DNA of 64,000 nt from an uncultured Planctomycetota bacterium (GCA_937944855.1 CALFAY010000003.1:64470-128469); one strand, 5' to 3'; shown: positions 1 to 17,679, numbered from the stretch's first letter. A program made the numbers and translations. The notes: a model not told the origin generated them from the letters alone.

Positions 1-1
1 C

Positions 2-247
2 GAAAACCAGACAGATCGTTTGTTCTTCGATCTCGACAACGCCCACTGGATCGCCGAGTGCCTGCCCTCCGAAGTGGTTCCCTTCCGCACCGAGGGGAAG
101 GTGACGGACCTGTGGGACAAAGGCATCACGCTTTTCGCTCACCTGGAACATCCCGACGACGCCTCCGGCCCGCCGTGGGCTTTGGTCTGGCTCGTCACGC
201 TGTTGGGCGGCGAGTGGCTGACGCGGAAACTCCTGAAACTTGCTTGA
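2..247 (+). CDS. C-terminal end of a gene starting upstream of the window (hypothetical envelope/membrane protein)
   Basis: Frame is open from nt 2 with no stop. It ends ...LVTLLGGEWLTRKLLKLA with TGA at 245-247. It runs in the same direction as, and directly abuts, the next gene. Confidence 0.5.
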   Translation, partial: ENQTDRLFFDLDNAHWIAECLPSEVVPFRTEGKVTDLWDKGITLFAHLEHPDDASGPPWALVWLVTLLGGEWLTRKLLKLA

Positions 248-275
248 GCGATACGCGAACCGTACGGTGGACGAT

Positions 276-3200: not shown

Positions 3201-3785
3201 GACCGCTGCGAAACCATTATCGCCGCCATCCAGAAGGGCCGGATGTCGATCCTGAAACGCTTGCGCGACGATTTCGACGCGGAATTCAAAATTGGCGACC
3301 GGGTTTACGACTTCCGCCGAGCGGCTGCCGATGCCTCCGACATGCAAAAGCTGCTGCTCGAAAACCAACTGGCGCTGGATGTCGAGGTTTCCAAGGCCTT
3401 CCGCGAGATTTATCGGGAACTGGTGCTGAACCGCTGCAAAGAGCAGGTGGTGGACCGGATCGACAAGCGGATCTGTCGGCCCCTGGAAAGCATCGTCCTG
3501 CCCGGGCAGCACTTCGACCGCGCTCAGAGAAGCTGCGAGGAGTTGGCCCGACGGCTCCAGAGCGAAACCTCGGCGACGCCGCGGGCTGCGGTCGAAGAGG
3601 CCATCGAGCGAACGGATCAGCTGGTGCAGAGATTGGAGGAGATCCTGGCCGAGATGCGGAAGCTCATCGAGTTCAATCAGGCCCTGAAAGTCCTCCAGGA
3701 AATCATCGACAAGCAGCGGGAGATCCTGGAGGCGATCCGCAAAAAGGAACGGGAAGAGCGGTTGAGGGAGCTTCAGGACAAGTGA
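276..3785 (+). CDS. large (about 1170 aa) N-terminally membrane-anchored hypothetical protein, DUF4175-like architecture
   Basis: First ATG of ORF 240..3785. Two hydrophobic helices lie near the N-terminus (IFEGIALAVIFVAAWIGTVLLL, VFLGILLAGLAFVLGY), followed by the LALLLERRFPQVLQDRLVTAVEL segment. The C-terminus is charged coiled-coil (EILAEMRKLIEFNQALKVLQEIIDKQREILEAIRKKEREE). The family name is from memory and tentative. Confidence 0.75.
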   Translation: MATAIPPAATRADRFLNFEQPLRQLGQAIRTYVIFEGIALAVIFVAAWIGTVLLLDWGTFALFGIDFLREVPESLHLGVRWVFLGILLAGLAFVLGYKVAYRLLVPFRPAALALLLERRFPQVLQDRLVTAVELADLGAVAEMGYSPEMVAATARSAAAKVEEVPLLRVFNWTRLQRLMSVAAVGTAGVLVLALLATDTFARFVERDLMLRSVYWPQPIMLDVVGFAQSERKAVPHGGDLRITVRAYRFVVADASHPEGWRPLAWPDVIPDLGDGRTSSPPWELRRLAVSRELWQSLPDAWRSLTLDELASRVHGTGQASEEDSPAAVDAELGFVLIDHLRDRLGSSLTGAAEPLDPELQAFLPEAWRTLPGEEAGELLRAVKTLKPAEAARLITLLRGTAWTAADGVQLLNAALGLGVPPVVTAGTAQEILQRLDPQARPLLLSDSDLELLPKSWRNLSGGEIEDRLVAFVGEHTLESFGARMRHRLSRLVDDLQACANLSHIGRRRYFRTLRIPDEVTVEFEQLLTEEERGQLKPRLGKPRVRRQLHSNEFLYEFKKIDRPMRFRVVADSVATAWRRIDVKELPALRRLTRTQKELGYLHGSNARVPVGPLPVSLEGEESLIEVPSGTLIEFEGVSQKPLRWVRIALPGQAEHQTWSKCAATALASVTLGPAAPPAVVGGLGLTSFMERSNPFVRSLEHVPAAADFRFALHELAADDLKLEIQFEDEDGIVAGRRLLLRVVTDREPEFKRAQPEIVRRKMITPLAVIPFSGHLHDDHGLLSAAYEVTVEQVDRKVVKKESFPMRRFRPLRLPDEPPDDLVFEKRADVRPARLLLGPWGEQLTTARTVALLPLAGPLVFAQPPVLETVQDYVFEFQVRSGTEPVLVPDDEFFDTLLLREQPNFAVPAESSPAPLSVPYRLTVRLIAQDNRVLTGPDGRPQAAPQQGRSAETFDFLVVSEEELLIENNKREEDLRDRCETIIAAIQKGRMSILKRLRDDFDAEFKIGDRVYDFRRAAADASDMQKLLLENQLALDVEVSKAFREIYRELVLNRCKEQVVDRIDKRICRPLESIVLPGQHFDRAQRSCEELARRLQSETSATPRAAVEEAIERTDQLVQRLEEILAEMRKLIEFNQALKVLQEIIDKQREILEAIRKKEREERLRELQDK

Positions 3786-3861
3786 TCGGCCCAGGAACGA
3801 TGGGCCGAGGACGGTTGGCTTTAAGAAACTTTTCCCGGAAAAGGTTGTTTGAAGACTGGGG

Positions 3862-3906
3862 GAATGCCGTTTACAGTTAGAAGAGGGAACGGCGTTCGTC
3901 TTTGTG
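3862..3906 (+). terminator. hairpin plus U-rich tail between the first two genes of the array (possible attenuator/terminator)
   Basis: GAATGCCGTT (3862-3871) pairs with AACGGCGTTC (3888-3897) in a 10-bp stem with one G-U pair and a 16-nt loop, followed by GTCTTTGTG. Confidence 0.3.
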
Positions 3907-4000
3907 AGCGTGGGGCTTGTGGACGGTTCCCTGGCGGGTGTCGGGGTTCGCAGGGCAGTTGACGACTGGCACGAGAACCTTGGGTTCGGAGGTTGTGACG

Positions 4001-5674
4001 ATGATCCCTCGGCTTGCGGGTGCATGGCTGATCCTGACGGCCGGAATCGTGCTGGTGGCGTATGCCCAGGATCCGGCCCGGCCTGTTGCTGCGGACGGAA
4101 ACCAACCGACCGCGACCACGCCTTCCGCAGAGCAAGCCCAGCTTGCCAGCCGATACCGACAACTCGAAGAAACCCTTCTGCGGATCGCCCAGAAATTGGA
4201 AAAGCGGGGACCTGAAGACCGCAACAAGGCCCGTCTGATCTATCGTGCCCTCCGCGAGGCCAAGGAGAAAGGCATCGCCGTCAACCTCGCCGAGTTGGCA
4301 GAAGACCTCAAGAAGCCCGCCCTGAAAGACCTCTCCGCCGCCATTGCTAAGGGAACGATTGTCGAAGAGGATTTGCGTCGCATCCTTAACCTGCTTCTGG
4401 CTGACGAGGAGGAAGACAGCAACAAGAAGGAAATCGAGTTCCTCAAGGAACTGGTCAAGGACCTGGAAAAGGCGATCCGGGACCAGAAGACCGCCATCGC
4501 TAAAAACGCCAGCCCCAGCGTGGATAACGAGGCCGCCGGCAAAGCCCAACAGGTCGCTACCCGCCAGGCCGAGGACATCCTCAAGAAGATCAAGAGATTC
4601 GAGGATGCCAAGAAGGGCGCCCAAACCAAGGCCGATGGTGCCAAGCCCTCCGACCGGAATCAGGGCGAGGGCAAAGGTCAGGGTGAAGGCAAAGGTGAGG
4701 GCAAAGGCGAAGGCAAGGGGGAAGGCGAAGGGAAGGGAGAAGGTAAAGGCGAGGGGAAAGGCCAGGGCGAGGGCCAAGGTGAAGGAAAAGGCCAAGGTCA
4801 GGGACAGGGCCAGGGTCAAGGTCAGGGCCAGGGGCAGGAGGGTGAAGGCGGCTTTCCGGGTCGGGAAAAGATCCAGGATGCCAACGATTACCAGAAGCGA
4901 GCCGAAGACAAGATCGCCAAGAATCAACGCCCCGATGCCGGCAACGACCAGCAGGAGGCCAAGGACCGCCTGGAACAAGCCAAGAAGCGGCTGGAAGAAA
5001 TCCTCCGGCAGATGCGCGAGGAAGAGCAGGAACGCATCCTGGCCGACCTGCTCCAGCGTTGTGAGAAGATGCTCCAGATGCAGGAGATCGTTTACGACAA
5101 CACCAAGAAAATCCATGAACGCATCGAAGCCACGTCGGACAAGAAGCCGTCGCGGGAAGAGGAAATCGCGGCCCGCCGTCAGTCCGACAAGGAGGACGAA
5201 ATCGTCCTCGAAGCGGACAAGGCCCTGACGCTGCTGGAAACCGAGGGCACTTCCGTAGCATTCGTCGAGGTGTTGCAGCAGGTCCGCAACGATATGGTCC
5301 ATGTTTCCCGCCGCCTGGCCAAGGCCGACGTCGGCCCCGAAACCCAGACCATCGAGGAAGACATCATCGCTACGCTCAAAGAAATGATCGAAGCCCTCAA
5401 ACGTCAGCTCCAGGAGTCGCGGGAGCGACGCAACAATCCGCCGTCTCAGGGAGGAGGCGATCAGCTTCAAAGTTTGATTGACCTGCTGGCGGAATTGAAG
5501 ATGATCAAAGCGATGCAGGTGCGCGTGTACAACCGCACGGTGCTGTGGGGCAAACGCTACCAGGGCGAGTTGGCGCGCGATCCCGACATCATCACCGAAT
5601 TGAAGGACTTGGCGATCCGGCAGAACCGTATTTATCAGATCACGGATAACATCGTGAAAGGGAGAAACCGATGA
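4001..5674 (+). CDS. secreted coiled-coil protein with central (G-E/Q-G-K/Q)n low-complexity spacer
   Basis: ATG at 4001 is preceded by GGAGGT. Signal-peptide-like MIPRLAGAWLILTAGIVLVAYAQD. Long charged helical regions. The stop overlaps the next start (ATGA at 5671-5674). Confidence 0.8.
   Translation: MIPRLAGAWLILTAGIVLVAYAQDPARPVAADGNQPTATTPSAEQAQLASRYRQLEETLLRIAQKLEKRGPEDRNKARLIYRALREAKEKGIAVNLAELAEDLKKPALKDLSAAIAKGTIVEEDLRRILNLLLADEEEDSNKKEIEFLKELVKDLEKAIRDQKTAIAKNASPSVDNEAAGKAQQVATRQAEDILKKIKRFEDAKKGAQTKADGAKPSDRNQGEGKGQGEGKGEGKGEGKGEGEGKGEGKGEGKGQGEGQGEGKGQGQGQGQGQGQGQGQEGEGGFPGREKIQDANDYQKRAEDKIAKNQRPDAGNDQQEAKDRLEQAKKRLEEILRQMREEEQERILADLLQRCEKMLQMQEIVYDNTKKIHERIEATSDKKPSREEEIAARRQSDKEDEIVLEADKALTLLETEGTSVAFVEVLQQVRNDMVHVSRRLAKADVGPETQTIEEDIIATLKEMIEALKRQLQESRERRNNPPSQGGGDQLQSLIDLLAELKMIKAMQVRVYNRTVLWGKRYQGELARDPDIITELKDLAIRQNRIYQITDNIVKGRNR
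4664..4852 (+). repeat. in-frame purine-rich tandem repeat encoding GEGKGQGEGKGEGKGEGKGEGEGKGEGKGEGKGQGEGQGEGKGQGQGQGQGQGQGQEGEGG
   Basis: Imperfect 6/12-nt periodic GGC/GAG/GGC/AAA units read directly in the sequence. It lies inside CDS 4001..5674. Confidence 0.9.
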
Positions 5675-6702
5675 GCCGTCTGACTGCGTTGGCCCTGGCG
5701 GCCTGCTGTGTGGTAGGGATAGGAACAGCCCAGGTCTGGCTTGACGCGGCTCACGGGGCCGATCCGATCTTCGGCGTCATTCGCGCACCGACCCTGGAAC
5801 AGGCCAAACAACAGACCTTCGAGACTCTGACCGCGCTTAAGGCGGATGCCGCGGCCCTCCAGAAAATCGAGCCGCTGTGGAATACGCTCGACGACCGCGG
5901 CTTGCTTGACCGCGTCGCCGAGAGCTTCGCCGCCGCCGATCCCCGGGTTGCTGAGCTGCTCTTGAGCGTGCGTTCGCCGTCCTCGCCGGGCACCGTCCCG
6001 GAACTCCTGAAGGATTCCGGGCTGCCGGTGTTCTTCCGGGCCAACGTCGGCCTGGCTTACGCCCGACATCTGGTTAATCGCCGGGTCAATGAGGAAGCGC
6101 TGGAAATCCTCCGCTCCGTTCGGCCCGAACAGGTGGTCGATCCCGCAGCGTACTACTTTTACAAGGCCGTTGCTGAGAATCGCCTGCTGCTCAAGGAAGA
6201 AGGCTTGCAGTCGCTGGATCGGCTGTCGAAGACCGTGGCCGATGTGCCGGAACGCTACCTTGTCCTGGCCGATCTGATGCGCCGGGAGATGCAGAACTGG
6301 AAGGACAAGGACCTCAGCTACGTCGCCCGCCGCATGGAAGAAGTCGAAAGCCGTCTCGACAACGCCCGCGGCGGCCCCAAGACGCAGGCCAAGCAGAAGG
6401 AGATCATTGACCTGCTCGACAAGCAAATCGAGGAACTGGAAGCGCAGTGCCAGGCCATGTGTGCCTCCAGTAGCTCCGCCAATCGTTCCAACGCTCCGCT
6501 GCCGGACAGCCGCATCATGGGCGGTGCCGGTCCCGGCAACGTGGACAAGAAGAAGCTGCTGAAGACTCTCGAAGTCTGGGGCAAGCTCCCGGAGAAGGAG
6601 AAGGTCAAGGCCCTGGAGGCCATCAAGCGCGACCTGCCGCCTTATTACCAGGAGGCCATCGAAGGCTATCTCAAGGAACTGGCCCGCGGCACCCAGAAGT
6701 GA
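5671..6702 (+). CDS. secreted hypothetical protein (helical; C-terminal LPPYYQEAIEGYLKELA motif)
   Basis: Translationally coupled to the upstream gene. Signal-like MSRLTALALAACCVVGIGTAQV. Coding-like composition throughout. Confidence 0.8.
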   Translation: MSRLTALALAACCVVGIGTAQVWLDAAHGADPIFGVIRAPTLEQAKQQTFETLTALKADAAALQKIEPLWNTLDDRGLLDRVAESFAAADPRVAELLLSVRSPSSPGTVPELLKDSGLPVFFRANVGLAYARHLVNRRVNEEALEILRSVRPEQVVDPAAYYFYKAVAENRLLLKEEGLQSLDRLSKTVADVPERYLVLADLMRREMQNWKDKDLSYVARRMEEVESRLDNARGGPKTQAKQKEIIDLLDKQIEELEAQCQAMCASSSSANRSNAPLPDSRIMGGAGPGNVDKKKLLKTLEVWGKLPEKEKVKALEAIKRDLPPYYQEAIEGYLKELARGTQK

Positions 6703-6809
6703 GGCCGGCGATTGTTGTGCGTGGAGATTCCTGACAGGCCGTCCGGGGCGGCACGGCAACCGCCGTGAACCTCCCGACGGCCTGTTCCGTTTCAGAGCCT
6801 GAGTACACA

Positions 6810-8051
6810 ATGCTGTCGCTGTCGCTTTGCCTGGCATCGCTGATCTTTCTTGCCGATCCCGACCCTGCCTCTGACCGGGGTGCCGTTCACACCCTGACCC
6901 GGCTAGACGGGACCGTGCAACGCCTCGAAGTCCTCGAACTGGGAGCGCAGCGGCTCCGGGTTCGGCAAGATGGACAAGAAACCCACACCGAAACCACGGA
7001 CCTGCTCGCCGTCGTTTTGCAACCGGCCCATCCGACGCCCTTCGCCGGGCCGTACCTCGAAGTCCGCCTTGTGGACGACGCCTTTTTCCGCTGTGCCGCC
7101 GTCGGTTTCCGCGGCAAACAGGTCGAACTGCGTTTGTTCAATGGGCTGAAAGTCGAATGCCCTCTGGATGCGCTGCGGAGCCTGCTGTGCGATGCTCAGG
7201 ACGAAGCCAATCGGGCCGAGTTCAAACAGCTCATGGAACGCAACACGCCTTTCGACCGGCTCCGGCTGGCCAGTCGGGACGGTACGACGATCAACACCTT
7301 CGAGGGCATCGTCGGGGATGCCGACGAAGAGGGCCGCTCGATCCGCTTTAAGACCGAGGATACGACGGCCAACATCGCTTTGAATCGTGTCCGGGGGATC
7401 ATCTTCCATCGCCGCATCGAACCAGGCGCGTTTCAGCCGGTGTGCCGAATTGTGGATGTGTTCCAGAACGTCATTCCGGCCAAAGAGATCAGCCAGAGCA
7501 GTGAGGTGCTGCATGTGACGACCCCGGCAGGCGTTCGAGTGGTCCTGCCCGTGGAGCTGGTGCAGCAGGTGGATTACAGCCCTGGCAAGCTGGCCTATTT
7601 GTCCGATCTGGAACCGACGCTCAAGGAGTTCCGTTTCGGGGTGAAGGAGGACCTGCTGCGTTCGCTGCCGGAGAAATACGGGCGGGACACCACGCTGTTT
7701 GCCGGTCAGAATGGCTCCTCCCGGCAGATTCGCATCGGCGGTCGGATCTTCGCCAGGGGCCTCAACGTCCATTCGCCGACCGTTCTGGAATTCGACGTCA
7801 CCGGCTATAAGTGGTTCCGCTGCGTTCTGGGCATGGATGACGGCGTGGCGCGACCGGGCCGGGCGGGGGTGCGGATCGAAGGCGACGGTCGGGAATTGTT
7901 CAGCACCCTTGTTGCCGGCGGCGACAGGCCGAAAGAGTTGGAAATCAAGATCACGGGAGTTCGCCGTCTGCGGCTGGTCGTGGATCGCGGCGACGATGAC
8001 GACGAACTGGGCGATCACGTCAGCTTCGGCGATGCCCGGGTCACCAAATAA
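6810..8051 (+). CDS. secreted protein with C-terminal NPCBM/NEW2-like domain
   Basis: ATG at 6810 gives the signal-like MLSLSLCLASLIFLA. The C-terminus GRIFARGLNVHSPTVLEFDVTGYKWFRCVLGMDDGV...VRIEGDGRELF...RRLRLVVDRGDDDDELGDHVSFGDARV matches the NPCBM pattern (G..vha.s...y.l.g.y..F.a.vG.DD...V.F.V..DG...L.L.v....g...D...w..A.l). Confidence 0.7.
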   Translation: MLSLSLCLASLIFLADPDPASDRGAVHTLTRLDGTVQRLEVLELGAQRLRVRQDGQETHTETTDLLAVVLQPAHPTPFAGPYLEVRLVDDAFFRCAAVGFRGKQVELRLFNGLKVECPLDALRSLLCDAQDEANRAEFKQLMERNTPFDRLRLASRDGTTINTFEGIVGDADEEGRSIRFKTEDTTANIALNRVRGIIFHRRIEPGAFQPVCRIVDVFQNVIPAKEISQSSEVLHVTTPAGVRVVLPVELVQQVDYSPGKLAYLSDLEPTLKEFRFGVKEDLLRSLPEKYGRDTTLFAGQNGSSRQIRIGGRIFARGLNVHSPTVLEFDVTGYKWFRCVLGMDDGVARPGRAGVRIEGDGRELFSTLVAGGDRPKELEIKITGVRRLRLVVDRGDDDDELGDHVSFGDARVTK

Positions 8052-8078
8052 CCCTGTGCCACGAAGGATACCGCTGCT

Positions 8079-9914
8079 ATGAAAGCGTGGACGTTTGCGA
8101 CTCTGTCCGCCACAGTGCTTCTGACGGCCCTGGCCGCTCGAACCGGGGCCGTGCCGCCGGTCATCGCTGAGGCCGAGGCCCGCCGTCTGGCCGCCATCGA
8201 AAAAGTCCGCGGCTCGGTGGTGGCGATCTTCGGTCGGGGCGGAGGCGGAGGCGGTTCCGGCGTGCTCATCTCTCCGGACGGCTACGCTTTGACCAATTTC
8301 CACGTCGTGCAACCGGCGGGGAAGTTCATGAAGTGCGGCCTGGCCGACGGCGTGCTCTACGATGCCGTCTTGGTCGGACTGGATCCGGTCGGCGACGTCG
8401 CCCTCATCAAGCTCTTGCCCCAAGAGCCGAACAAGCCGTTCCCCTTCGCCGCCATGGGCGACAGCGACAAGGTCCGCATCGGCGATTGGGTCCTGGCGAT
8501 GGGCAATCCGTTCCTGTTGGCCACGGATTTCACGCCTACCATCACCTACGGCCTGGTCAGCGGAGTCAATCGCTACCAGTACCCCGCCGGCACGATCCTG
8601 GAGTACACCGACTGCATCCAGATCGACGCCTCGATCAACCCGGGCAACAGCGGTGGCCCGCTCTTCAATCTCGACGGGGAAATCATCGGGATCAACGGCC
8701 GCGGCTCGTTCGAGAAGCGTGGACGGGTCAACTCTGGCGTCGGCTACGCGATCTCGATCAACCAGATCAAGAACTTTCTGGGGCACCTCAAGGGCGGGCT
8801 GCTGGTGGACCATGCCACGCTCGGGGCCGTCGTCCGCACCGACGAAGAAGGCCGGCTCGTCGTCCGGCAGATCCTGGAGAGCAGCGACGCCCATCGGCGC
8901 GGTCTGGACGTGGACGATGAGTTGGTTTCCTTCGCCGGTCGGCCCATGACCAGCGTGAACCAGTTCAAGAACGTGCTGGGAATCTATCCCAAGGGCTGGC
9001 GGTTGCCTCTGGTCTATCGGCGGACCGACGAGGAGCGAAACACCACGACGACGCACCAGGTGTTGGTTCGGTTGCTCGGCGTCGGCGTGGATCGGCAATT
9101 GGAAGAGCGCCAGCCGCGACCCATTCCAGGTCAGCCTCCCGAGCCGCCTCAACCAGGCCAGCCGCGTCGGCCTCCCGGCCAGCCGCCCACGCCGCCCGAA
9201 GATGCCGAGGACAAGCCGGAGGAGAAAGCGCCAAGCCCGGCTGCCAAGTTCTACGAGGAAAAGAAGGGCTTCGCCAATTACTACTTCAACCGCCTGGAAC
9301 GGGACCGGCTGATGGCCGAGGTCAAGAAACTCGGCGACTTCAGCGGAGTCGGCGAAGCTTGGCGGATCGAAGGCGAGCGCGTGCAACCGGTCAAGGACGC
9401 CTTCGCCGCCGTCGTCCGGCAAGGTCAGGTCCGGTTGACCCTGGGCGAGCAGGAATACGCTCTGGAACCGCTCAAGCCGGGCGAATCGCTGACCAATCTC
9501 CGTGAACCCCGCGACAGCGGCGGGTTGATGGCCGCGCTGTACGTCTGGCGTCGCTTCCTGGAAAAGGGACCGGAGGGCTTTGAGATCGACTTCCATTACG
9601 GCGGTTACGAGCCGTTCTACTCGGACGGCACGGCTCCCAGCCGCGTCGATTGCGAAGTGCTTGTTGCCGAACATGGTCCGTTCTACGCCAAGTGGTATTT
9701 CCGCCGCACTGACGGCCAGTTGATCGGCATGGAAACCTATACGGAAAAGGACCATGATCCCTGCGAGATCACTTTCAGCGACTACCGGGATGTCGATGGC
9801 CGCAAATTGCCGCATCGCCTCGAAGTCCGTCATGCGGGGAAGGATTTCGGCATCTTCGTCATCAAGTCCCATGACCTTAAGACGGCATCTGATTCCAAGG
9901 AGAAGCAGCCTTGA
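8079..9914 (+). CDS. HtrA/DegP-like S1C serine protease with PDZ domain and Pro-rich linker plus unknown C-terminal domain; catalytic triad intact
   Basis: Signal peptide present. His in GYALTNFHVV, Asp in GDVALIKL, Ser in NPGNSGGPLFN. PDZ-like VVRQILESSDAHRRGLDVDDELVSFAG. Confidence 0.9.
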   Translation: MKAWTFATLSATVLLTALAARTGAVPPVIAEAEARRLAAIEKVRGSVVAIFGRGGGGGGSGVLISPDGYALTNFHVVQPAGKFMKCGLADGVLYDAVLVGLDPVGDVALIKLLPQEPNKPFPFAAMGDSDKVRIGDWVLAMGNPFLLATDFTPTITYGLVSGVNRYQYPAGTILEYTDCIQIDASINPGNSGGPLFNLDGEIIGINGRGSFEKRGRVNSGVGYAISINQIKNFLGHLKGGLLVDHATLGAVVRTDEEGRLVVRQILESSDAHRRGLDVDDELVSFAGRPMTSVNQFKNVLGIYPKGWRLPLVYRRTDEERNTTTTHQVLVRLLGVGVDRQLEERQPRPIPGQPPEPPQPGQPRRPPGQPPTPPEDAEDKPEEKAPSPAAKFYEEKKGFANYYFNRLERDRLMAEVKKLGDFSGVGEAWRIEGERVQPVKDAFAAVVRQGQVRLTLGEQEYALEPLKPGESLTNLREPRDSGGLMAALYVWRRFLEKGPEGFEIDFHYGGYEPFYSDGTAPSRVDCEVLVAEHGPFYAKWYFRRTDGQLIGMETYTEKDHDPCEITFSDYRDVDGRKLPHRLEVRHAGKDFGIFVIKSHDLKTASDSKEKQP

Positions 9915-10990
9915 CCAGGCCCATACCGATCCTATTTGCCGTGGTGGGATGGCTGGCCGCCGCGACGGCCATTCGGGCCGATGTCTCTTTCGCCGAGGTC
10001 GTCCGTAAGACCAATCCCAAGATCGTCAAGGTGTACGGTGCGGGCGGTTTCCGCGGCATCACGGCGTACTGCTCTGGCGTCCTCATTTCCCCGGACGGGT
10101 ACATCCTGACGGTGTACAGCCCGACGCTGGACACGCGCGAATTGCGCGTCCACTTGTACGACGGCACCCGCCATGCGTGCGAACTGGTCGCCGCCGAACC
10201 CCAGCTTGATGTCGCTCTGATCCGCATCAAGGATCGGGAACGCTTCAAGGATTTGCCCCTGGAGCATTTCGATTTGAGCCAGCCGCCGCCGGAAATGAAG
10301 GTCGGCGATTGGGTGCTGGCGTTCAGCAATCTGTTCGAGATCGCCACGCGGGACGAGCCAGTGTCGGTGCAGCGCGGCGTGATCTCGGCCATCACGCCGT
10401 TCGCAGGCCGACGCGGCATCCACGAGGCGGCATACAGGGGCAAGGCGATCATCGTGGACGCCATCACCAACAATCCGGGGGCACACGGCGGGGCGTTGAC
10501 GACGCGCAAGGGCGAACTCATCGGCATCATCGGCAAGGAACTGAAGAACGCCCTGTCCGAAACCTGGGTCAACTACGCCATGCCGATCACGGAACTGCGG
10601 GACTTCGCCTTGCGGGCCATGCGCGGCGACTACAAACCGCTGGACCGGCCCGAGACCCGTCAGGTCGTGGACAAGAAACCCTACCACGGCCTTGTCCTCG
10701 TCCCCGACATCCTTGACCGCACGCCGCCGTATGTCGAGGAAGTTATCCCCGGCTCTCCCGCGGCACGAGCCGGTCTGCGGCCCGATGATCTCATCGTCTT
10801 CATTCGTGCTCCGCGTCCCGACTCTCCGGGCGAGTTGGAAGAGCGGGTCATCGCCAGTTGCAAAGCGTTCAAGGAAACTCTGGCCGGACTCGACCCCGGC
10901 ATGACCATCAAGGTCATCGTGCGCCGGGGAGGCCAACTGCTCAGTCTCGACCTGACCCTGGAGCCGCCTCCGCCGGCAGCCACCAAATGA
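9911..10990 (+). CDS. HtrA-like paralog with non-canonical triad (His->Ser and Ser->His) plus PDZ domain
   Basis: TTG start overlaps the upstream stop (TTGA at 9911-9914). GVLISPDGYILTVYSPT aligns without gaps to GVLISPDGYALTNFHVV. LDVALIRI keeps the Asp. NPGAHGGAL replaces NPGNSGGPL. PDZ-like VEEVIPGSPAARAGLRPDDLIV. Confidence 0.85.
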   Translation: MTRPIPILFAVVGWLAAATAIRADVSFAEVVRKTNPKIVKVYGAGGFRGITAYCSGVLISPDGYILTVYSPTLDTRELRVHLYDGTRHACELVAAEPQLDVALIRIKDRERFKDLPLEHFDLSQPPPEMKVGDWVLAFSNLFEIATRDEPVSVQRGVISAITPFAGRRGIHEAAYRGKAIIVDAITNNPGAHGGALTTRKGELIGIIGKELKNALSETWVNYAMPITELRDFALRAMRGDYKPLDRPETRQVVDKKPYHGLVLVPDILDRTPPYVEEVIPGSPAARAGLRPDDLIVFIRAPRPDSPGELEERVIASCKAFKETLAGLDPGMTIKVIVRRGGQLLSLDLTLEPPPPAATK

Positions 10991-13128
10991 GGCCTGATTC
11001 GATGCGACACTCCATAATGCGTTTTGCAATGCTGATGCGGCTTGTGCTTGCTGTCGGGTGCCTCCTCCAAGCGGCTTCGATGACGGTTTCCGCGAAGGAA
11101 GATGTGGATGCCGCTCTGGAACAGGCGACCAAGGCTGCTCTGGACCGCATCTCTCCGGTCGTGGTCCAGATTCGCACCGTCGGCGGCCTGGAGGTCGTCA
11201 GCGGCGTCCGGAAGGGACTGGGACCGACCACCGGCGTCATCGTGGACCCGGACGGCTACATCATTTCCAGTTCGTTCAACTTCGCCAGCAAACCCTCGGC
11301 CATCGCCGTTTCGCTGCCCGGTCGTCAGGAGCCGCTTAACGCTCAGGTCGTAGCTCAGGACCAGACCCGGATGCTGACCTTGCTCAAGGTCGAGGCCAAT
11401 AACTTGCCCACGCCCGCCTTCGTGCCGAAATCGGAGATCCGGCTCGGCCAATGGGCCTTGGCTGTCGGACGCACCTGGGCCGACGTGTATGCCGGACCGC
11501 CTTCGGTCAGCGTCGGCATCATCAGTGCCAAGGACCGCATCTGGGGCAAGGCCCTTCAGACCGATGCCAAGGTGTCTCCGGTCAACTACGGTGGACCGCT
11601 CATCGACCTCGAAGGCCGCGTTCTGGGCATTCTCGTCCCCCTCTCTCCCCAGCGGGATGACGAGACCGCCGGGGTCGAGTGGTATGACGGGGGTATCGGC
11701 TTCGCCATTCCGATGGAGGACATCCTCGCCGTCCTGCCAAAACTGAAGCAGGGAACCAATCTCACCCGCGGGTTGCTCGGCATCCGCATGAAGAGCCGAG
11801 ATCAGTTCTCCGCCCCGCCGGTCATCGGCGAAGTAGGACCGGGCACAGCCGCGGCCAAGGCGGGCTTGCTGCCGGGCGATCTGATCATCGAAGTGGACGG
11901 CAAACCCGTCAGCCGATACGCCCAGATTCAGCACATTCTCGGCGTCAAGTACGCCGGCGACCGCGTGAGCCTGAAGGTGAAACGCGGCGATCAGGTGCTC
12001 GATTTCCCCAACATCGAACTGACCGGACCGCCCCAAGCCACCGCACTGGCGTTTCTCGGCATTCTGCCGATGCGGGACGATCCCGAAGCTGGGGTCGCGG
12101 TTCGGTATCTCTTTCCCAACGGCCCAGCGCGGCAGGCGGGAATCCGACCTGGGGACCGGATCGTGCGGCTCAACGACCAACCGATCCTCAACCGCCTGCA
12201 TCTCAGTCAGGTTGTCTCCCGACTGGCTCCGCAGTCCGAAGTCACACTCGATGTGAAACGCAAGGACGCCGACAAAACCGACAAGATCAAGGTCCGCCTG
12301 GCGGAACTGACCCCCGAATTGCCCGAAGATGAGCTTCCCGAAGGGACGTTGAAACAAGCCCTGGCACCACAACAGCCCTTGGTCCTGCCCGGCGGCGGTC
12401 CCGGCGGGCAACCGCGCCCCGGTCCCATGCCGCAGCCGCGTCCGATGGGTCAGCCTCCTCGGCCGCGTCCCGGACGCGATAAGCAACCTCAGCCGAAGCC
12501 GGAGGTCCCCAAAGGCGTGATTCAGCATACCGACCCCGCGACGGGCCACGCCTACTGGCTGTACGTCCCGGAAAACTACGATCCGAACATCTCGCACGGC
12601 CTGATCATCTGGCTGCATCCGGCTGGTGACACGATGGAACAGGCCATGCTGCGGTTGTGGCAAGACCTGTGCAAGAAGCATCATCTGATCCTGTACGGTC
12701 CCAAGGCCGAAAACCCGACCGGCTGGCTGACCAGCGAAGCCGATCTGATCCGGGAAGACCTGCGCAAGATCGCCGCGGAGTACACTCTCGACCGCTCCCG
12801 CATCGTGACTCACGGCCTCGGGCAGGGAGCCAGCTTTGCCCTGTATCTGGCCTTCGACGCCCGTGACCAGGTCCGAGGCGCGGCGGTGTTCGGCGGTGCG
12901 CTGCCGAATCTGCCCCGCGACCTGAGCGGGCCTCCGCTTTCGTTCTTCCTCGTCGGCGGCGGTCGGGATCCTGAGATCGAGGCCTTTCGCGCCGTCAAAC
13001 CCGCCCTGGAGGAGCGCAAGTTTCCGGTCAACTACCGCGAGTTGCCGGAGCATGGCAATGGCTACGTCACCGATCCCGGAGTCCTCCGGACATTGATGAG
13101 CTGGATTGAAGGACTGGACCGCATTTAG
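10987..13128 (+). CDS. HtrA-like pseudoprotease (all three triad residues replaced) with two PDZ domains, Pro-rich linker and esterase-like domain lacking the Ser nucleophile
   Basis: ATG overlaps the upstream stop (ATGA at 10987-10990). Signal-like MRFAMLMRLVLAVGCLLQAASMTVSA. GYIISSSFNF (no His), RMLTLLKV (no Asp), SPVNYGGPL (Ser->Tyr). PDZ-like GEVGPGTAAAKAGLLPGDLIIEVDG and LFPNGPARQAGIRPGDRIVRLN. C-terminal LIIWLHPAGD...RIVTHGLGQGASFALYLAF has GLGQG where an esterase has GxSxG. Confidence 0.85.
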   Translation: MRPDSMRHSIMRFAMLMRLVLAVGCLLQAASMTVSAKEDVDAALEQATKAALDRISPVVVQIRTVGGLEVVSGVRKGLGPTTGVIVDPDGYIISSSFNFASKPSAIAVSLPGRQEPLNAQVVAQDQTRMLTLLKVEANNLPTPAFVPKSEIRLGQWALAVGRTWADVYAGPPSVSVGIISAKDRIWGKALQTDAKVSPVNYGGPLIDLEGRVLGILVPLSPQRDDETAGVEWYDGGIGFAIPMEDILAVLPKLKQGTNLTRGLLGIRMKSRDQFSAPPVIGEVGPGTAAAKAGLLPGDLIIEVDGKPVSRYAQIQHILGVKYAGDRVSLKVKRGDQVLDFPNIELTGPPQATALAFLGILPMRDDPEAGVAVRYLFPNGPARQAGIRPGDRIVRLNDQPILNRLHLSQVVSRLAPQSEVTLDVKRKDADKTDKIKVRLAELTPELPEDELPEGTLKQALAPQQPLVLPGGGPGGQPRPGPMPQPRPMGQPPRPRPGRDKQPQPKPEVPKGVIQHTDPATGHAYWLYVPENYDPNISHGLIIWLHPAGDTMEQAMLRLWQDLCKKHHLILYGPKAENPTGWLTSEADLIREDLRKIAAEYTLDRSRIVTHGLGQGASFALYLAFDARDQVRGAAVFGGALPNLPRDLSGPPLSFFLVGGGRDPEIEAFRAVKPALEERKFPVNYRELPEHGNGYVTDPGVLRTLMSWIEGLDRI

Positions 13129-13145
13129 GTTCCCCGAAATCAGGC

Positions 13146-14129
13146 TCAGCGGTATCGCTCCGGGAAGCCAAGCTGTTCCAGGTGCTCGCGCAACATTCTC
13201 TCCTGTTCCGCAGTCAGATCCGCCAACGGGGGCCGAACGGGACCGCAATCCACACCCAGAATCGCCATAACCCGTTTGGCCGCTGGGAGAAAGCCGAAGC
13301 GACTCAGACACGAGATCAGCTCGTTGGCCTGATGCTGGAGTTGCCGGGCGTGGTCCAGGTCGCCTTCCGCAAAGGCTTGCAGTAAGCGGAGATACAGTCC
13401 TGAAGCATAGTTGTAGTTGGTCCCGACGGCCCCTCGGACGCCCAGGGCCGCGGCGGGCAGCAGCATCTCGTCCAGCCCAAAGAGGACGTCGAACCGGCCC
13501 TCGTCCCACCGCAGGCAGCGCAACAAATCCATCAGATCGGGATGTGAAAACTTCGCCCCGGCCAGCGATGGAACTTGCGCCGCGGCTTCGCGCAACAAAT
13601 CGCTGACCGGAATCGTCACGCCGGTGCGCATCGGAATGTGATAGTAGTAAAACGGCAAGTCGGGGGCGGCCTCGGCCACCCGACGGCAGAAGGCGACCAG
13701 GTCGGCGACCGAGTACGGCTTGTAATAGCTTGGCGCGAAGCAACTTATGGCTGAGGCACCGATCTGTTGCGCGTGCCCGGCCAGTTCTCGACAATCCTCA
13801 AGGCTCTCACTGCCGACATGAACCATGACATTCAAGTCCACTTCTGAGGCAATCGCGCACCATCGCCGCGCAACATTTTTGCGTTCATCCACGCTGAGCG
13901 AAGGTCCTTCGCCGGTGGTGCCGTTGATGAACACCGTCTGAATCCCAACCGATTGCAGCCATTGGGCTTGTGCGTCAATTCCGGCAAGGTTCAGGGAGCC
14001 GTCGGCGTGGAACGGAGTGAAAGTGGCCGCGATCAGGCCGGTGTAGCGATTCACGACTATGAGCCTCGGATGCAGTTCCAGATGCGGAAACAGATCTAGT
14101 CTAAACGGTGCCTCCTGGCTGCGCAACAT
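13146..14129 (-). CDS. dihydrodipicolinate synthase / N-acetylneuraminate lyase family class I aldolase
   Basis: GLIAATFTPFHADGSLNL, INGTTGEGPSLS, GAKFSHPD and an overall DapA-family layout. The start codon is uncertain because the N-terminal 25 aa are not family-like. Confidence 0.8.
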   Translation of the reverse strand: MLRSQEAPFRLDLFPHLELHPRLIVVNRYTGLIAATFTPFHADGSLNLAGIDAQAQWLQSVGIQTVFINGTTGEGPSLSVDERKNVARRWCAIASEVDLNVMVHVGSESLEDCRELAGHAQQIGASAISCFAPSYYKPYSVADLVAFCRRVAEAAPDLPFYYYHIPMRTGVTIPVSDLLREAAAQVPSLAGAKFSHPDLMDLLRCLRWDEGRFDVLFGLDEMLLPAAALGVRGAVGTNYNYASGLYLRLLQAFAEGDLDHARQLQHQANELISCLSRFGFLPAAKRVMAILGVDCGPVRPPLADLTAEQERMLREHLEQLGFPERYR

Positions 14130-14279
14130 TTTTTACCCAAGTCAGCCCCTGCGGTTGGAGGCGTGAATCCATGATTCTCGGCACTTCCCCTTGACGGGCC
14201 AATGCCACCAAGGATGCCCTCCCTTGCAGTATGGATATATGAACATTTGAACATTTCCTGAACGTGCCGTCGAGGTGCG

Positions 14280-14308
14280 TTGACCCATATCGACAGGCGG
14301 CTTAGAAT
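14280..14308 (+). promoter_or_regulatory. sigma70-like promoter candidate for the dksA-like/lspA unit
   Basis: TTGACC (14280-14285), 17-nt spacer, TAGAAT (14303-14308), 30 nt upstream of the ORF. A tandem GAACATTT GAACATTT lies just upstream (about 14241-14256). Confidence 0.4.
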
Positions 14309-14337
14309 AGACGAATTGAAGATCAGACACCCTTCGG

Positions 14338-14730
14338 ATGGACAGCGAGGATGGCATGAAGAGCAGCGAATTGGCTCGCTTCAAGGAACGACTACTCGCT
14401 CTGCGTGCCCGTTGCACCGGCGATGTCAATCAACTGGCCGATGAAGGTCTGCGACGCGGTGAGGACGGCGTGGCCGGCAATCTGTCCAATCTCCCGCTGC
14501 ATCTGGCGGATGTCGGGTCGGACAACTTTGAGCAGGAGTTCACCCTGAGTCTGCTCCAGAACGAGGGGAAGCTGCTGGCGGAGATTGACGCCGCCCTGGG
14601 TCGCATTGCCAAGGGCACTTACGGCATCTGCGAGCAGTGCGGGGCCGCTATTCCCAAGGAACGGCTCAAAGCGGTACCTTACACCGCCTATTGCGTCAAT
14701 TGTGCACGGAAGCTGGAAGAGCGATCATGA
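14338..14730 (+). CDS. DksA/TraR-family C4 zinc-finger protein
   Basis: C-terminal CEQCGAAIPKERLKAVPYTAYCVNC four-Cys finger preceded by a coiled-coil. The alternative start at 14356 (MKSSEL...) has the better SD (GAGGA). Confidence 0.85.
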   Translation: MDSEDGMKSSELARFKERLLALRARCTGDVNQLADEGLRRGEDGVAGNLSNLPLHLADVGSDNFEQEFTLSLLQNEGKLLAEIDAALGRIAKGTYGICEQCGAAIPKERLKAVPYTAYCVNCARKLEERS

Positions 14731-15353
14731 GCGACTCGCCGATCCCCGGCAAATCCTGGTCTTGGCTTTTTGTGGTGCTCGCGGTTGCAGGATTCGTCGC
14801 TGATCTGGGTTCCAAGTACGCGGTCAATGCGTGGCTGGACCAGGATCGGCATCACATCACTGTCGGCGGCTTCGTACACAAGGGTTACGAGATCGTTCCC
14901 GGCATGTTCAGCTTGGTGCGCCAGGAGGGTTTGAACCGGGGAGCGCTGTTCGGCCTAGGCAATCATCCTGAGCACGGAGACAAGGCGAATCTGCTTTTCG
15001 CCGGGATCAGCGCCGCCGCGGCCGTGCTCATCGTCCTGTGGAGCTTCCGCCGAAGCGTGGTTTCTTCCGGGGCGCTGAGTCTGGCTCTGGGTCTGATTCT
15101 GGCCGGGGCCTTGGGCAATCTCTACGATCGGCTGGTGTTCGGCGGCGTCCGCGATTTCATCTGGGTGTACTACCAGAGTGCGGACGACGGCCGCTTGCTC
15201 TTCAATTACCCGGTCTTCAATCTCGCTGACACGTTCCTGTGCATCGGGGCGGCGGTGCTGGTGCTGCGCACGATCTTCGCGCCGTCGGATCGGAGGGCGG
15301 ACGCGGCCCGTTCGCCGAACCCGCCTGCCGAGGCCGCCCGCTCCGCGGGTTAA
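14727..15353 (+). CDS. lspA: lipoprotein signal peptidase (signal peptidase II)
   Basis: ATGA overlap with the upstream stop. LGSKYAV, NRGALFGLG, GNLYDRLVFGGVRDFI and FNLADTFLCIGA are LspA signature segments. Confidence 0.9.
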   Translation: MSDSPIPGKSWSWLFVVLAVAGFVADLGSKYAVNAWLDQDRHHITVGGFVHKGYEIVPGMFSLVRQEGLNRGALFGLGNHPEHGDKANLLFAGISAAAAVLIVLWSFRRSVVSSGALSLALGLILAGALGNLYDRLVFGGVRDFIWVYYQSADDGRLLFNYPVFNLADTFLCIGAAVLVLRTIFAPSDRRADAARSPNPPAEAARSAG

Positions 15354-17509
15354 TCCACCTTGGCTTCCTGCAGAGTCAGCCCGAGGTAAGTGCTCTTGTC
15401 GCGTCGGGCCAGGACCTCCCACGGCGTGCCGGGATGTTCCTTGATGATGCGGTCAAGGATCTCCTGCCGCTGCTTCTCCCAGTTACGCGTGTCCTTCTGC
15501 TGGAGCCGTTCCGACGGAACGATCAGCCAACCATTGTTCTGCGGATTGGTAATGATCGGACTGTCCTTGCGGAGCTTGTTGCCCAGGACGAAGTTGTACT
15601 CCATGATGGCAATGCGGCGGGCGAGCATCTGGGAGAACACATAGTCGAAGTGGGCCTGCCAGCGTTTGGTTTCCTTGTCCCGATCCGCTGCTGCTTTTTC
15701 CATCGCCTCCATGATCTCTTCCAACTCCTGGTTCAGACGGGCCGGCTGCTGTTGCTTGCGTTCGATGGACGCTTTGAACTGGGCATCGTTGGCCTCGGCC
15801 TTGATGCTTTTCTCCGCGTTGAAGCGTTTGTCGATGTCGAGCAGCTTGTTGATCGTGTCCAAGGTGACTTGCCGCAGCGGGTGCTTCTCGGGATCGGGAT
15901 CCCGATCAACGGGCGTCAGGTACGGTTCGAGGGCCTTGGCGAAGAAAGGCGGCAAGCTCTGCGAGCCGGCCTCGACGATGCCGAGTTCATGGATGATCTC
16001 GTCCACGACCCGGGGCTCGGCCAGCGGCTCGGAGCCTAGCGGCTCGACGATCTTGACCGGAGGCGGTGGAGCGTCGGAGACATCGTCCGGGGGTTTCATG
16101 GCCACGCCGAGAACCCTGGGCGTCTGCACGGCGTTCCAGCGATCCTTGACATACTTGGTCACTTCGTCATTGACCTGGGAAGCGAAGAACAACAGCGGCA
16201 AAGACTCCTCGGCGAACCCCGGCTGCTTCTTGATCTCCAGCCGTTTCTTCGGATCGGCCAGGTCACGGGCGTAGCTGTGCAGATAGTGCATAAACACACT
16301 ACCGATGAAGCCCGAGCTGGCAAACTCGTAGGAATGCTCGCCGGACGAACAACTGAGCCACACCTGCACGCCATCGGGCACCTTGCGGAGCTGGGCCGCC
16401 AGCTTCTCGCCGAGCTTCTCGCCGCCGGAACGGGCCAGGCCCTGTTCCGGATCGAGATGGGCGATGTCGAGGATGAGCAGCTTGCGATGGGCCTTGCACT
16501 TTTCCAGTTGCTCATAGAGCCAGCCGATCGGGATCAAATCCTCCTTTTTCGTGAATTCTCCCTCCAGCGGCACAAGATAACCCTGGTCCTCCAGCTCCAC
16601 CGCATGGCCGACATAGACGAGCACGACGCGGTCCTGCGGCCGGGAATCTTCGAGGAAGACACGGATGGTCGCCTGGACCGTCGGCTTCAGAGGCGAAACG
16701 GGCTTTTCCTCGGCGACATCGCTGAGTTCCTTGACCTGCGACGGGTCGAAACGCAGACCCTCGATCAAAGCTTTCTTAAGATGGTGCAGGCCGAGCGGAT
16801 CCCGGGTCAGCGAATTGTCGGGACGGTAACCGGGATTGATCGGGTTGGCGTACAGGTAATTGCGGATGCCGACGAGCAAGGCCCGGCCGGGATAGCGTTT
16901 GTGCCATTCGACGGTGGCAACGGGCGGGGTCGGGAGCGGATTCGAGGTTTGTCCCTCGGAGGGCGAGGCCGTCGGTTTGTCTGGCGGCATGGGCGTGTCG
17001 GGATCGGCCTTGGCGACTTGGACCGGCTCCTTGGTCTCCGCCGGTTTGGCTTCCCCCGGCTGCGACGGCCGAGCCACGTTGGGCGGCGGCCGGTCCTTGC
17101 TCGGCGTCAGCACTTCCTCCTTGTTCGACTCGGCCAGCGCAGTCGTGGTCTCCTGCCGGTTCTCCTTCTTGAGCGAGGCCAGCATCTCCTGCCCGCGCTG
17201 GATCAGCGGCCTGCCGGCGATGAGCAGTGTCAATGCGATGACAATGACGAGAGCGGCGGTGATCGCCGACTTGACATAGAACCGGCGTCGGCGACGGGCC
17301 TTGAATTCGGCCACCAGCGAGAGATCGCCGTCGCCGCGACCATCGGCCCCTGGTTTTCCCTGCGGCGCGGGCTGGAAGGCGATCCTGGTCCCCGCCATCT
17401 TGAGCGTGGCTCCGCATGACTTGCAACGAAACAGCGACTCTTTCCACCCGGCGGGAATCACCAACGCCTTGCGGCACTTCGGGCAGGCGGCTTGAACGAC
17501 CTGACTCAT
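15350..17509 (-). CDS. zinc-ribbon / single-TM / Pro-rich linker / caspase-like (C14-like) domain protein lacking the catalytic Cys, plus unknown C-terminal domain
   Basis: ATG at 17509 has GGAGG upstream. CPKCRKAL...CKSCGATL ribbon. TM segment AITAALVIVIALTLLIA. RALLVGIRNYLY...VVLVYVGHAVELEDQGYLVP...KLLILDIAHLD...VWLSCSSGEHSYE follows the caspase fold order. Confidence 0.75.
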   Translation of the reverse strand: MSQVVQAACPKCRKALVIPAGWKESLFRCKSCGATLKMAGTRIAFQPAPQGKPGADGRGDGDLSLVAEFKARRRRRFYVKSAITAALVIVIALTLLIAGRPLIQRGQEMLASLKKENRQETTTALAESNKEEVLTPSKDRPPPNVARPSQPGEAKPAETKEPVQVAKADPDTPMPPDKPTASPSEGQTSNPLPTPPVATVEWHKRYPGRALLVGIRNYLYANPINPGYRPDNSLTRDPLGLHHLKKALIEGLRFDPSQVKELSDVAEEKPVSPLKPTVQATIRVFLEDSRPQDRVVLVYVGHAVELEDQGYLVPLEGEFTKKEDLIPIGWLYEQLEKCKAHRKLLILDIAHLDPEQGLARSGGEKLGEKLAAQLRKVPDGVQVWLSCSSGEHSYEFASSGFIGSVFMHYLHSYARDLADPKKRLEIKKQPGFAEESLPLLFFASQVNDEVTKYVKDRWNAVQTPRVLGVAMKPPDDVSDAPPPPVKIVEPLGSEPLAEPRVVDEIIHELGIVEAGSQSLPPFFAKALEPYLTPVDRDPDPEKHPLRQVTLDTINKLLDIDKRFNAEKSIKAEANDAQFKASIERKQQQPARLNQELEEIMEAMEKAAADRDKETKRWQAHFDYVFSQMLARRIAIMEYNFVLGNKLRKDSPIITNPQNNGWLIVPSERLQQKDTRNWEKQRQEILDRIIKEHPGTPWEVLARRDKSTYLGLTLQEAKVD

Positions 17510-17679
17510 CGGGTATGCCTCCGAATGGGGAGGGAGCATGGCGGCCAAGTTGCGGACCTCAGTTTATTCTAACAGACGACGAACTGCTTCCGACAGATGA
17601 CGTCCCCGGAAAGTGGAAATCATGAGGGCGGGCAGGTTCAGGCAGCGGCCCGTTGCGGTGCGACGTCGGGAGTCACATC

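Follow-up and report, generated by a model that had tools for sequence, protein, structure and literature searches.

An HtrA trio in a Planctomycetia envelope gene cluster combines one predicted protease with two conserved predicted pseudoproteases

Introduction

In HtrA trimers activation passes between neighbouring subunits, and the paralogous plant HtrA subunits Deg5 and Deg8 co-assemble in one complex whose partners are catalytically competent. RseB, a LolA-fold protein, gates DegS-dependent proteolysis. Pseudoenzymes that partner active paralogs are well studied in eukaryotes; to our knowledge there are few bacterial cases, among which MamO is the main HtrA example. Here we report the analysis of three adjacent genes encoding HtrA-like proteins, named P1, P2, and P3, located at positions 8079-13128 in a 64,000-nt stretch of DNA from an uncultured Planctomycetota bacterium (hereafter the window). 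P1 has a complete His-Asp-Ser triad, and P2 and P3 are conserved paralogs predicted to be catalytically dead.

Promotion of the activity of MamE, an active HtrA protease, requires the pseudoprotease MamO (PMC4794232). Operons that combine MoxR and vWA proteins have been proposed to encode degradation systems that lie close to the membrane and are linked to a peptidase (PMC3495828), and the function of the Bat proteins themselves is described as unresolved (PMC3557215). A limited literature search found no paper describing the planctomycete gene cluster analyzed here.

Results

Three exported HtrA paralogs with a single intact triad

The original prediction, made from the window sequence alone, proposed three HtrA-like open reading frames (ORFs), one active and two with altered triads. 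This proposal was borne out by profile scores, by column alignments, and by the catalytic codons of P1, P2, and P3, which were checked on the nucleotide sequence. The Pfam model Trypsin_2 (cutoff 27.6 bits) was matched by P1, P2, and P3 with 111, 71.6, and 70.4 bits, respectively, and the NCBIfam model of the Do family was matched by all three proteins, each below its cutoff; P1 scored 202.6 bits against TIGR02037. A C-terminal PDZ domain, as expected for the S1C family, is present in P2 (PDZ_6, 31.9 bits) and P3 (two PDZ domains, 97.6 bits in Pfam), and that of P1 is sub-threshold (20.7 bits versus a cutoff of 27). The description of shared blocks as near-identical was overstated, with pairwise identities of 24-35% between the protease domains. 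Because the His-Asp-Ser triad is found in P1 alone, with Ser-Asp-His in P2 and Phe-Met-Tyr in P3, the latter two proteins are predicted to be homologs within the HtrA group (MEROPS family S1C) and not peptidases.

Inspection of the N-termini revealed Sec-type signal peptides in all three proteins, as well as in the products of three upstream genes (U2-U4), from which we infer their export. P2 starts with a TTG codon located eight bases downstream of AAGGAG (9897-9902). The 4-nt overlaps described previously exist as sequences, TTGA at 9911-9914 between P1 and P2 and ATGA at 10987-10990 between P2 and P3, and the first of them stands as described. The second depends on the start codon of P3, which is a protein of 713 aa when begun at ATG 10987. 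Since the homologs of P3 have short N-termini, and P0121, which is 96% identical, starts at a position corresponding to a later Met, a start at ATG 11017 may be equally plausible; P2 and P3 would then be spaced by a 26-nt gap without any 4-nt overlap. Conserved translational coupling of the trio was rejected, as overlaps are possible in about 17% of the loci.

P1: a canonical protease domain and a LolA-like C-terminus

The triad of P1 consists of H75 (8301), D106 (8394), and S191 (8649), and it is invariant among the orthologs that have a residue at the respective column (His in 66/66, Asp in 67/67, and Ser in 68/68). With this canonical His-Asp-Ser protease domain, P1 is predicted to be the sole enzyme of the trio.

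The original prediction did not include the weak PDZ domain of P1, the large cluster context of the trio, or the C-terminal domain of P1. The AlphaFold2 (AF2) model of the latter domain, obtained with a predicted local distance difference test score (pLDDT) of 93.2 and a predicted template modeling score (pTM) of 0.90, has the unclosed beta-barrel and helical lid that characterize the LolA/LolB superfamily. Its best Foldseek matches were LolA3 (9tp6, E-value 7.7e-6), 3buu, 4z48, LolB (8cm1), and 3bk5, and the matches, which include NE2245 and DUF1329, had a probability of 1.0 and E-values from 8e-6 to 3e-4; RseB was a lower, weak fold match with a template modeling (TM) score of about 0.24. 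No Pfam match to this domain was obtained except DUF4292 at an E-value of 0.07. The LolA-like designation of the model is a consistent fold-level assignment, not a family membership. The domain is also kept in P1 of Pirellulaceae, and the LolA fold typically binds hydrophobic ligands.

P2: a pseudoprotease with an apparent His/Ser exchange

Alignment of P2 to the solved DegQ and DegP chains by phmmer placed S70 (10118) on the catalytic His, D100 (10208) on the Asp, and H192 (10484) on the Ser, in agreement with the His-to-Ser and Ser-to-His replacements originally assigned to these columns. Among 81 genomes, the His column is occupied by Ser (58), Asn (16), Thr (4), Gly (2), or Ala (1), the Asp column by Asp in 77, and the Ser column by Ala (51), Gly (23), His (4), and one each of Asn, Gln, and Ser. 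The canonical His-Asp-Ser combination is found in 0 of the 81 genomes and 0 of 121 metagenome proteins. In the genomes, Ser-Asp-His is confined to the window and three related loci (L001, L004, and L005; 4/81). The metagenome set, which is enriched for close relatives of the window, contains 32 proteins with Ser-Asp-His and 40 with Ser-Asp-Asn, both at similar identity to the window protein. The His at the Ser column thus swaps with Asn, a single-base change, inside the close clade, and most Gemmataceae as well as Pirellulaceae have Ala or Gly there, the columns of the Pirellulaceae ortholog in contig L161 being Ser-Ala-Ala.

These distributions bear on whether P2 could be a working hydrolase with a rearranged site, with Ser70 as the nucleophile and His192 as the base of a swapped dyad or triad. 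The window protein has Ser, Asp, and His at the triad positions and retains the Gly of the oxyanion position (NPG), and many orthologs have Ser or Thr at the His column (108/121 and 58/81 in the two sets, and in Pirellulaceae too). However, His192 is not conserved, alternating with Asn among close relatives, and the Pirellulaceae ortholog retains neither the Asp nor the His. In the chymotrypsin fold, moreover, the partner of Asp102 is residue 57 rather than 195, and it is residue 195 that the oxyanion hole surrounds; after a swap, both the charge relay and the oxyanion hole would therefore be missing. On these grounds the swapped triad was rejected, and we regard a working P2 hydrolase as very improbable. 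Since His is found at the Ser column in 4/81 genomes, the reciprocal swap is not a conserved catalytic rearrangement, and its reading as a meaningful pattern, put forward in the original prediction, did not survive the comparison with these genomes or with the metagenome set (32/121). Comparison of the columns resolves the exchange into two unrelated components, a widely kept Ser and a lineage-restricted His interchangeable with Asn. His192 is an incidental, lineage-restricted residue outside any rebuilt active site.

In 27 of the 81 genomes, the P2 ortholog has a His one residue past the His column (P71 in the window; motif ASH), and the Ser column of these orthologs is always Ala or Gly. This residue is either what is left of the ancestral His, displaced by one position, or a newly acquired feature.

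P3: a pseudoprotease fused to a nucleophile-less esterase fold

In P3, the alignments of six sequences and of orthologs agree with the replacements proposed earlier, placing F97 (11275), M129 (11371), and Y201 (11587) at the His, Asp, and Ser columns, respectively; the equivalent of Gly193 is lost. The AF2 model (pLDDT 83) has structural matches to DegP and DegQ at E-values of about 1e-30. Among 66 genome orthologs, the three columns hold Phe in 63 (the others have Tyr), Met in 65, and Tyr in 66.

The two PDZ domains and the carboxylesterase-like domain lacking a nucleophile Ser, which had been recognized from the sequence, are supported by Pfam matches (25.1 bits to Abhydrolase_2, cutoff 23) and by alignment of G612 (12820) to the esterase Ser. 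The hydrolase domain also matched a polyhydroxyalkanoate (PHA)-depolymerase-type model with 34.8 bits, and the region was modeled as alternating strands and helices at a pLDDT of about 85-94, which is the pattern of an alpha/beta-hydrolase fold. G612 falls on the Ser of GxSxG in weak matches to 8jh8 (GFSFG), 3wyd (GHSMG), and 2h1i (GYSNG). The nucleophile column of the 66 orthologs contains Gly in 52 and Ser in 1. The esterase Asp (D661) is kept, with Asp in 61/66 orthologs, and the His column is not conserved, so that P3 has neither the Ser in GxSxG nor the catalytic His of a carboxylesterase.

A profile search of 1.84 billion cluster representatives with P3 returned 4490 matches at E-values of 1e-30 or lower. 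The best 150 of these all scored at least 509 bits, are mostly 620-740 aa long, and are 33-58% identical to P3 of the window. Of 149 of these best 150 representatives, 148 have Tyr at the Ser column and 124 have Phe or Tyr at the His column; at the Asp column, 76 have Met and the others a polar residue. A Ser at the position of the esterase nucleophile occurs in just 4. The named members of the distant clusters belong to Pirellulaceae or Pirellulales. Because the replacement residues are fixed over a large evolutionary distance, most strictly the Tyr (148/149), their conservation points to a new binding function built into the old active site.

We also considered P3 as a lipoprotein and rejected this assignment, as the Cys of LAVGC is not conserved and the homologs have ordinary Sec signal peptides. 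P2 is currently annotated as 'S1C family serine protease' or 'serine protease Do', and P3 homologs appear in JGI/IMG as 'S1-C subfamily serine protease/predicted esterase' and in NCBI only as PDZ domain-containing proteins. Judged from the catalytic columns, the database names of P2 and P3 appear to overstate their activity.

Conservation, selection, and gene order

The P2 query identified thousands of homologs, and the genome scan gave more than 580 matching stretches, from which 80 loci (designated by L numbers) were retrieved. They belong mostly to Gemmatales, including Gemmata, Fimbriiglobus, Limnoglobus, and metagenome-assembled genomes (MAGs) from hot springs. A Gemmatales-type cluster with 43-50% identity also occurs in MAGs labelled as Alcaligenaceae or Candidatus Kuenenia (L006, L016, L054, L059, L060, and L076), which are probably mislabelled or contaminated bins.

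In all loci with enough sequence, P1 lies upstream of P2 (65/65) and P3 downstream of it (54/54), and the order U2, U4, P1, P2, P3 is colinear in 22/22 loci. Smaller gaps of 1.1-1.4 kb were observed between P2 and P3 in L002 and between P1 and P2 in L003. The Pirellulaceae contig L161 has the order vWA, U1, U2, U3, NPCBM, P1, P2, P3; its P1 has His-Asp-Ser and the same C-terminal domain, and its P3 has Phe-Met-Tyr and a Glu at the esterase nucleophile. Since the same order is found in L161, the arrangement predates the split between Gemmatales and Pirellulales.

The ratios of nonsynonymous to synonymous substitution rates (dN/dS, Nei-Gojobori) against the 88%-identical locus L001 were 0.089 for P1, 0.087 for P2, and 0.108 for P3, and are approximate because dS, at 0.84-1.0, is near saturation. 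Decay of P2 and P3 as pseudogenes left from a P1 duplication would fit the fact that two protease domains and one esterase domain have lost catalytic residues. Nevertheless, both reading frames are uninterrupted in about 80 genomes and in hundreds of metagenome proteins, with no frameshifts or in-frame stops, the dN/dS values are about 0.09-0.11, the replacement residues are conserved, and the trio is present in both Gemmatales and Pirellulaceae. The survey of orthologous clusters and of dN/dS suggested in the original prediction thus refutes plain pseudogenes, to which we assign a negligible probability. What the same survey upholds is the proposal of conserved pseudoenzymes beside a single active protease, with substitutions conserved across orders, purifying dN/dS, and strict co-occurrence.

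The gene cluster and its neighborhood

The trio forms the 3' end of a roughly 13-gene, ~23-kb cluster in Gemmatales and Pirellulaceae, which contains MoxR, DUF58, BatA-like, and vWA proteins, four exported proteins of unknown function including an NPCBM protein, and the trio itself (Table 1). In related contigs (L081-L160), the genes located 5' of U1 on the same strand encode, in this order, MoxR (AAA_3, 212 bits), DUF58 (157 bits), a BatA_N membrane protein, and a vWA protein. These contigs thus have the composition of a Bat, or MoxR-DUF58-vWA, operon, of which the window itself shows just the 3' end of the vWA gene (U0). The frame-2 translation of U0 matches the C-terminus of the protein preceding U1 in L007, and the U0 ortholog in L088 has weak VWA_2/VWA_3 matches. 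Of the 19 MoxR-U1 loci with at least 9 kb past U1, 14 continue into P1; in L088, the U1 half is followed not by U2-P3 but by genes for a beta-helix protein and a UvrD-like helicase. The MoxR gene is preceded on the same strand by a gene with weak matches to squalene-hopene-cyclase repeats (33 bits) and, 5' of the latter, sometimes by a gene for a PQQ/BamB-like beta-propeller (L088, 1-2309; L081-L160), and given these genes the conserved cluster may be longer still.

No usable domain match was found for U1, U2, and U3 in Pfam, NCBIfam, or the PDB sequence search. The middle of U2 contains low-complexity GEGKG/GQ repeats of about 65 residues (4650-4860), the flanks of which are conserved in orthologs. 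The NPCBM domain of U4 scored 80.3 bits in Pfam and had PDB sequence matches to NPCBM/F5-8-type modules.

Table 1. Coordinates of the trio, the adjacent cluster genes, and the flanking genes in the window
Feature	Position	Strand	Description
U0	2-247	+	vWA-type membrane protein, 3' end; last 81 codons, ending in GEWLTRKLLKLA before the stop
U1	276-3785	+	About 1170 aa, N-terminal transmembrane helices; same position in L001-L160
U2	3917-5674 (start probably ATG 4001)	+	Exported coiled-coil protein; position conserved; overlaps U3 by 4 nt
U3	5671-6702	+	Exported, 343 aa; position conserved
U4	6765-8051	+	Exported; C-terminal NPCBM (carbohydrate-binding-type) domain; position conserved, also in Pirellulaceae L161
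P1	8079-9914	+	611 aa; signal peptide, protease domain, weak PDZ, Pro/Gln-rich linker, C-terminal domain
P1 C-terminal domain	9240-9911	+	LolA/LolB-superfamily-like; aa 388-611, 224 residues
P2	9911-10990	+	359 aa; signal peptide, HtrA protease fold, one PDZ
P3	10987-13128 (start perhaps 11017)	+	Signal peptide, HtrA fold, PDZ1, PDZ2, Pro-rich linker, alpha/beta-hydrolase domain
P3 hydrolase domain	12499-13125	+	Nucleophile-less alpha/beta-hydrolase domain
DHDPS-family lyase	13146-14129	-	171 bits; dihydrodipicolinate synthase (DHDPS) family
DksA/TraR protein	14338-14730	+	Zinc-finger protein, 55 bits
LspA	about 14727-15353	+	Lipoprotein signal peptidase II, 98.5 bits

The three genes downstream of the trio, encoding the DHDPS-family lyase, the DksA/TraR protein, and LspA, are not conserved beside it in L007 or L161, and the nearness of LspA to the LolA-like domain is probably coincidental. 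The ORF at 15350-17548 (minus strand, 732 aa) combines a zinc-ribbon-like motif (CxxC...CxxC) at the N-terminus with a transmembrane segment and an extensive C-terminal region, and gave no Pfam match at an E-value of 0.001 or lower. Two long antisense ORFs, 6903-9872 (minus strand, 989 aa) and 10681-13794 (minus strand, 1037 aa), lie opposite U4/P1 and P2/P3, respectively; they are without family support and represent the usual artefact of high GC content (about 63%), not genes. A promoter and terminator scan of positions 1-14500 gave counts no better than those of shuffled sequences. An anti-phage defence system was rejected as well, as PADLOC gave just a generic trypsin-domain match for P1.

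Discussion

Proposed function of the trio

The comparative data suggest that these exported (periplasmic) HtrA paralogs are ancient and have been inherited together, and that they form the last module of a Planctomycetia envelope cluster. Because they have been conserved for so long in a shared envelope gene cluster, the dead copies appear to have a real non-catalytic job. We favor, by a little more than an even chance, the reading in which P1 is the one catalytic subunit and P2 and P3 are non-catalytic binding or regulatory paralogs, probably in mixed HtrA oligomers. P2 and P3 would bind substrates or ligands, and would target or allosterically control P1 without catalysis, and P1 would process or quality-control the co-encoded exported proteins. 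Mixed oligomers of P1, P2, and P3 are probable since HtrA activation normally passes between neighboring subunits of a trimer. We infer the physical association of the three proteins, the direction of regulation, and the substrates by analogy, the partnership of P2 and P3 with P1 being modeled on HtrA trimer activation, on MamO/MamE, and on the MoxR-vWA proposal.

The main rival explanation is that P2 and P3 are stand-alone chaperones or holdases, which would form homo-oligomeric cages or trimers and escort the exported vWA and U proteins with no direct partnership with P1. The S210A variant of DegP, which is without the catalytic Ser, keeps its chaperone activity; P3 has the two-PDZ plan of DegP/DegQ and matches the cage-forming structures of these proteins; the peptide-binding loops (xPhiGPhi) of the PDZ domains are retained in P2 (HGLV) and in P3 (LLGI and FLGI); and the adjacency to P1 is sometimes broken, with overlaps that are not conserved. 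Nevertheless, wherever the available sequence is long enough, P1, P2, and P3 occur together, their arrangement is the same in different taxonomic orders, and the fixed Phe/Met/Tyr cleft, together with the conserved dead esterase, suggests a specific ligand site rather than a general holdase. We therefore consider independent chaperones unlikely, if far from negligible.

Several observations weigh against a partnership of P2 and P3 with P1 within a single envelope module. An insertion of about 5 kb (about 4800-9900 of the respective locus) lies between P1 and P2-P3 in L059, L065, and L067. A 4-nt overlap is possible in just 13/77 loci for P1-P2 and 11/66 for P2-P3, counts that are noisy as the start codons were assigned heuristically, and in the window the P2/P3 overlap hangs on the uncertain start codon of P3. 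The U2-P3 half is absent within 9-10 kb in 5 of the 19 MoxR-U1 loci (L082, L088, L095, L106, and L140), and thus the link to MoxR is not obligatory. Finally, the fold matches behind the LolA-like assignment have TM scores of just 0.4-0.5.

A more specific version of the P1-centered partnership is tentative, and we think it rather unlikely to be correct in full. P1, P2, and P3 would be obligate partners in one mixed HtrA trimer or oligomer that has a single catalytic site, and the dead subunits would be dedicated sensors that read a lipid, glycan, or peptide signal of the planctomycete envelope and switch P1 on allosterically. The signal would be read via the PDZ domains, the cleft filled by Phe, Met, and Tyr, the dead esterase pocket, and, in cis, the LolA-like domain of P1. 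If this were true, the trio would be the proteolytic output of a MoxR-vWA envelope machine that predates the Gemmatales/Pirellulales split.

The trio is apparently undescribed and is conserved across at least two orders, with one predicted active and two differently dead HtrA paralogs. Three catalytic domains in the set are putatively dead, namely the protease folds of P2 and P3 and the esterase fold of P3. P3 fuses a protease and an esterase that are both putatively dead, and P1 joins a protease to a LolA-like domain. The trio also offers a handle on the MoxR/DUF58/BatA/vWA cluster of planctomycete envelopes.

Comparison with known systems

The order of MoxR, DUF58, BatA_N, and vWA genes 5' of U1 in the related contigs is that of Bat operons, from which the planctomycete cluster differs by the added U1-U4 genes and HtrA trio, with no BatC-type TPR protein and no BatD/E seen. 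The best PDB matches of the trio are DegQ, DegP, and DegS, and its architectures resemble theirs, with a protease domain and one PDZ in P2 and P1, and a protease domain and two PDZ domains in P3; P2 is DegS-like and P3 DegP/DegQ-like. The LolA-like fold that P1 carries in cis is reminiscent of the DegS-RseB pair. Unlike the DegS-RseB-RseA, DegP, and DegQ systems, the proteins score below equivalog cutoffs and two of the three paralogs are without the triad; no RseA or sigma-E partner was identified near the trio. In contrast to Deg5/Deg8, two of the three paralogs are predicted to be dead, and their co-assembly is hypothesized by analogy.

MamE/MamO shares with the trio an active HtrA protease and a catalytically degenerate HtrA paralog encoded in one gene cluster. 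The differences are that the planctomycete cluster has no magnetosome genes and no TauE-type membrane domain detected by Pfam, that there are two dead paralogs of differing architecture, one fused to a dead esterase fold, and that the active P1 is fused to a LolA-like domain. The trio scored 23-105 bits against the NCBIfam MamO/MamE models (cutoff 800), including 23-47 bits for MamO (NF040961), so that it has the MamO-type combination of a degenerate triad and an active HtrA partner in the cluster without belonging to MamO by sequence or by magnetosome context. Loss of the Gly at position 193 is a further feature common to P3 and MamO. In both systems, a dead copy appears to be kept for non-catalytic roles, one of which, in the case of MamO, is to promote the active protease (PMC4794232).

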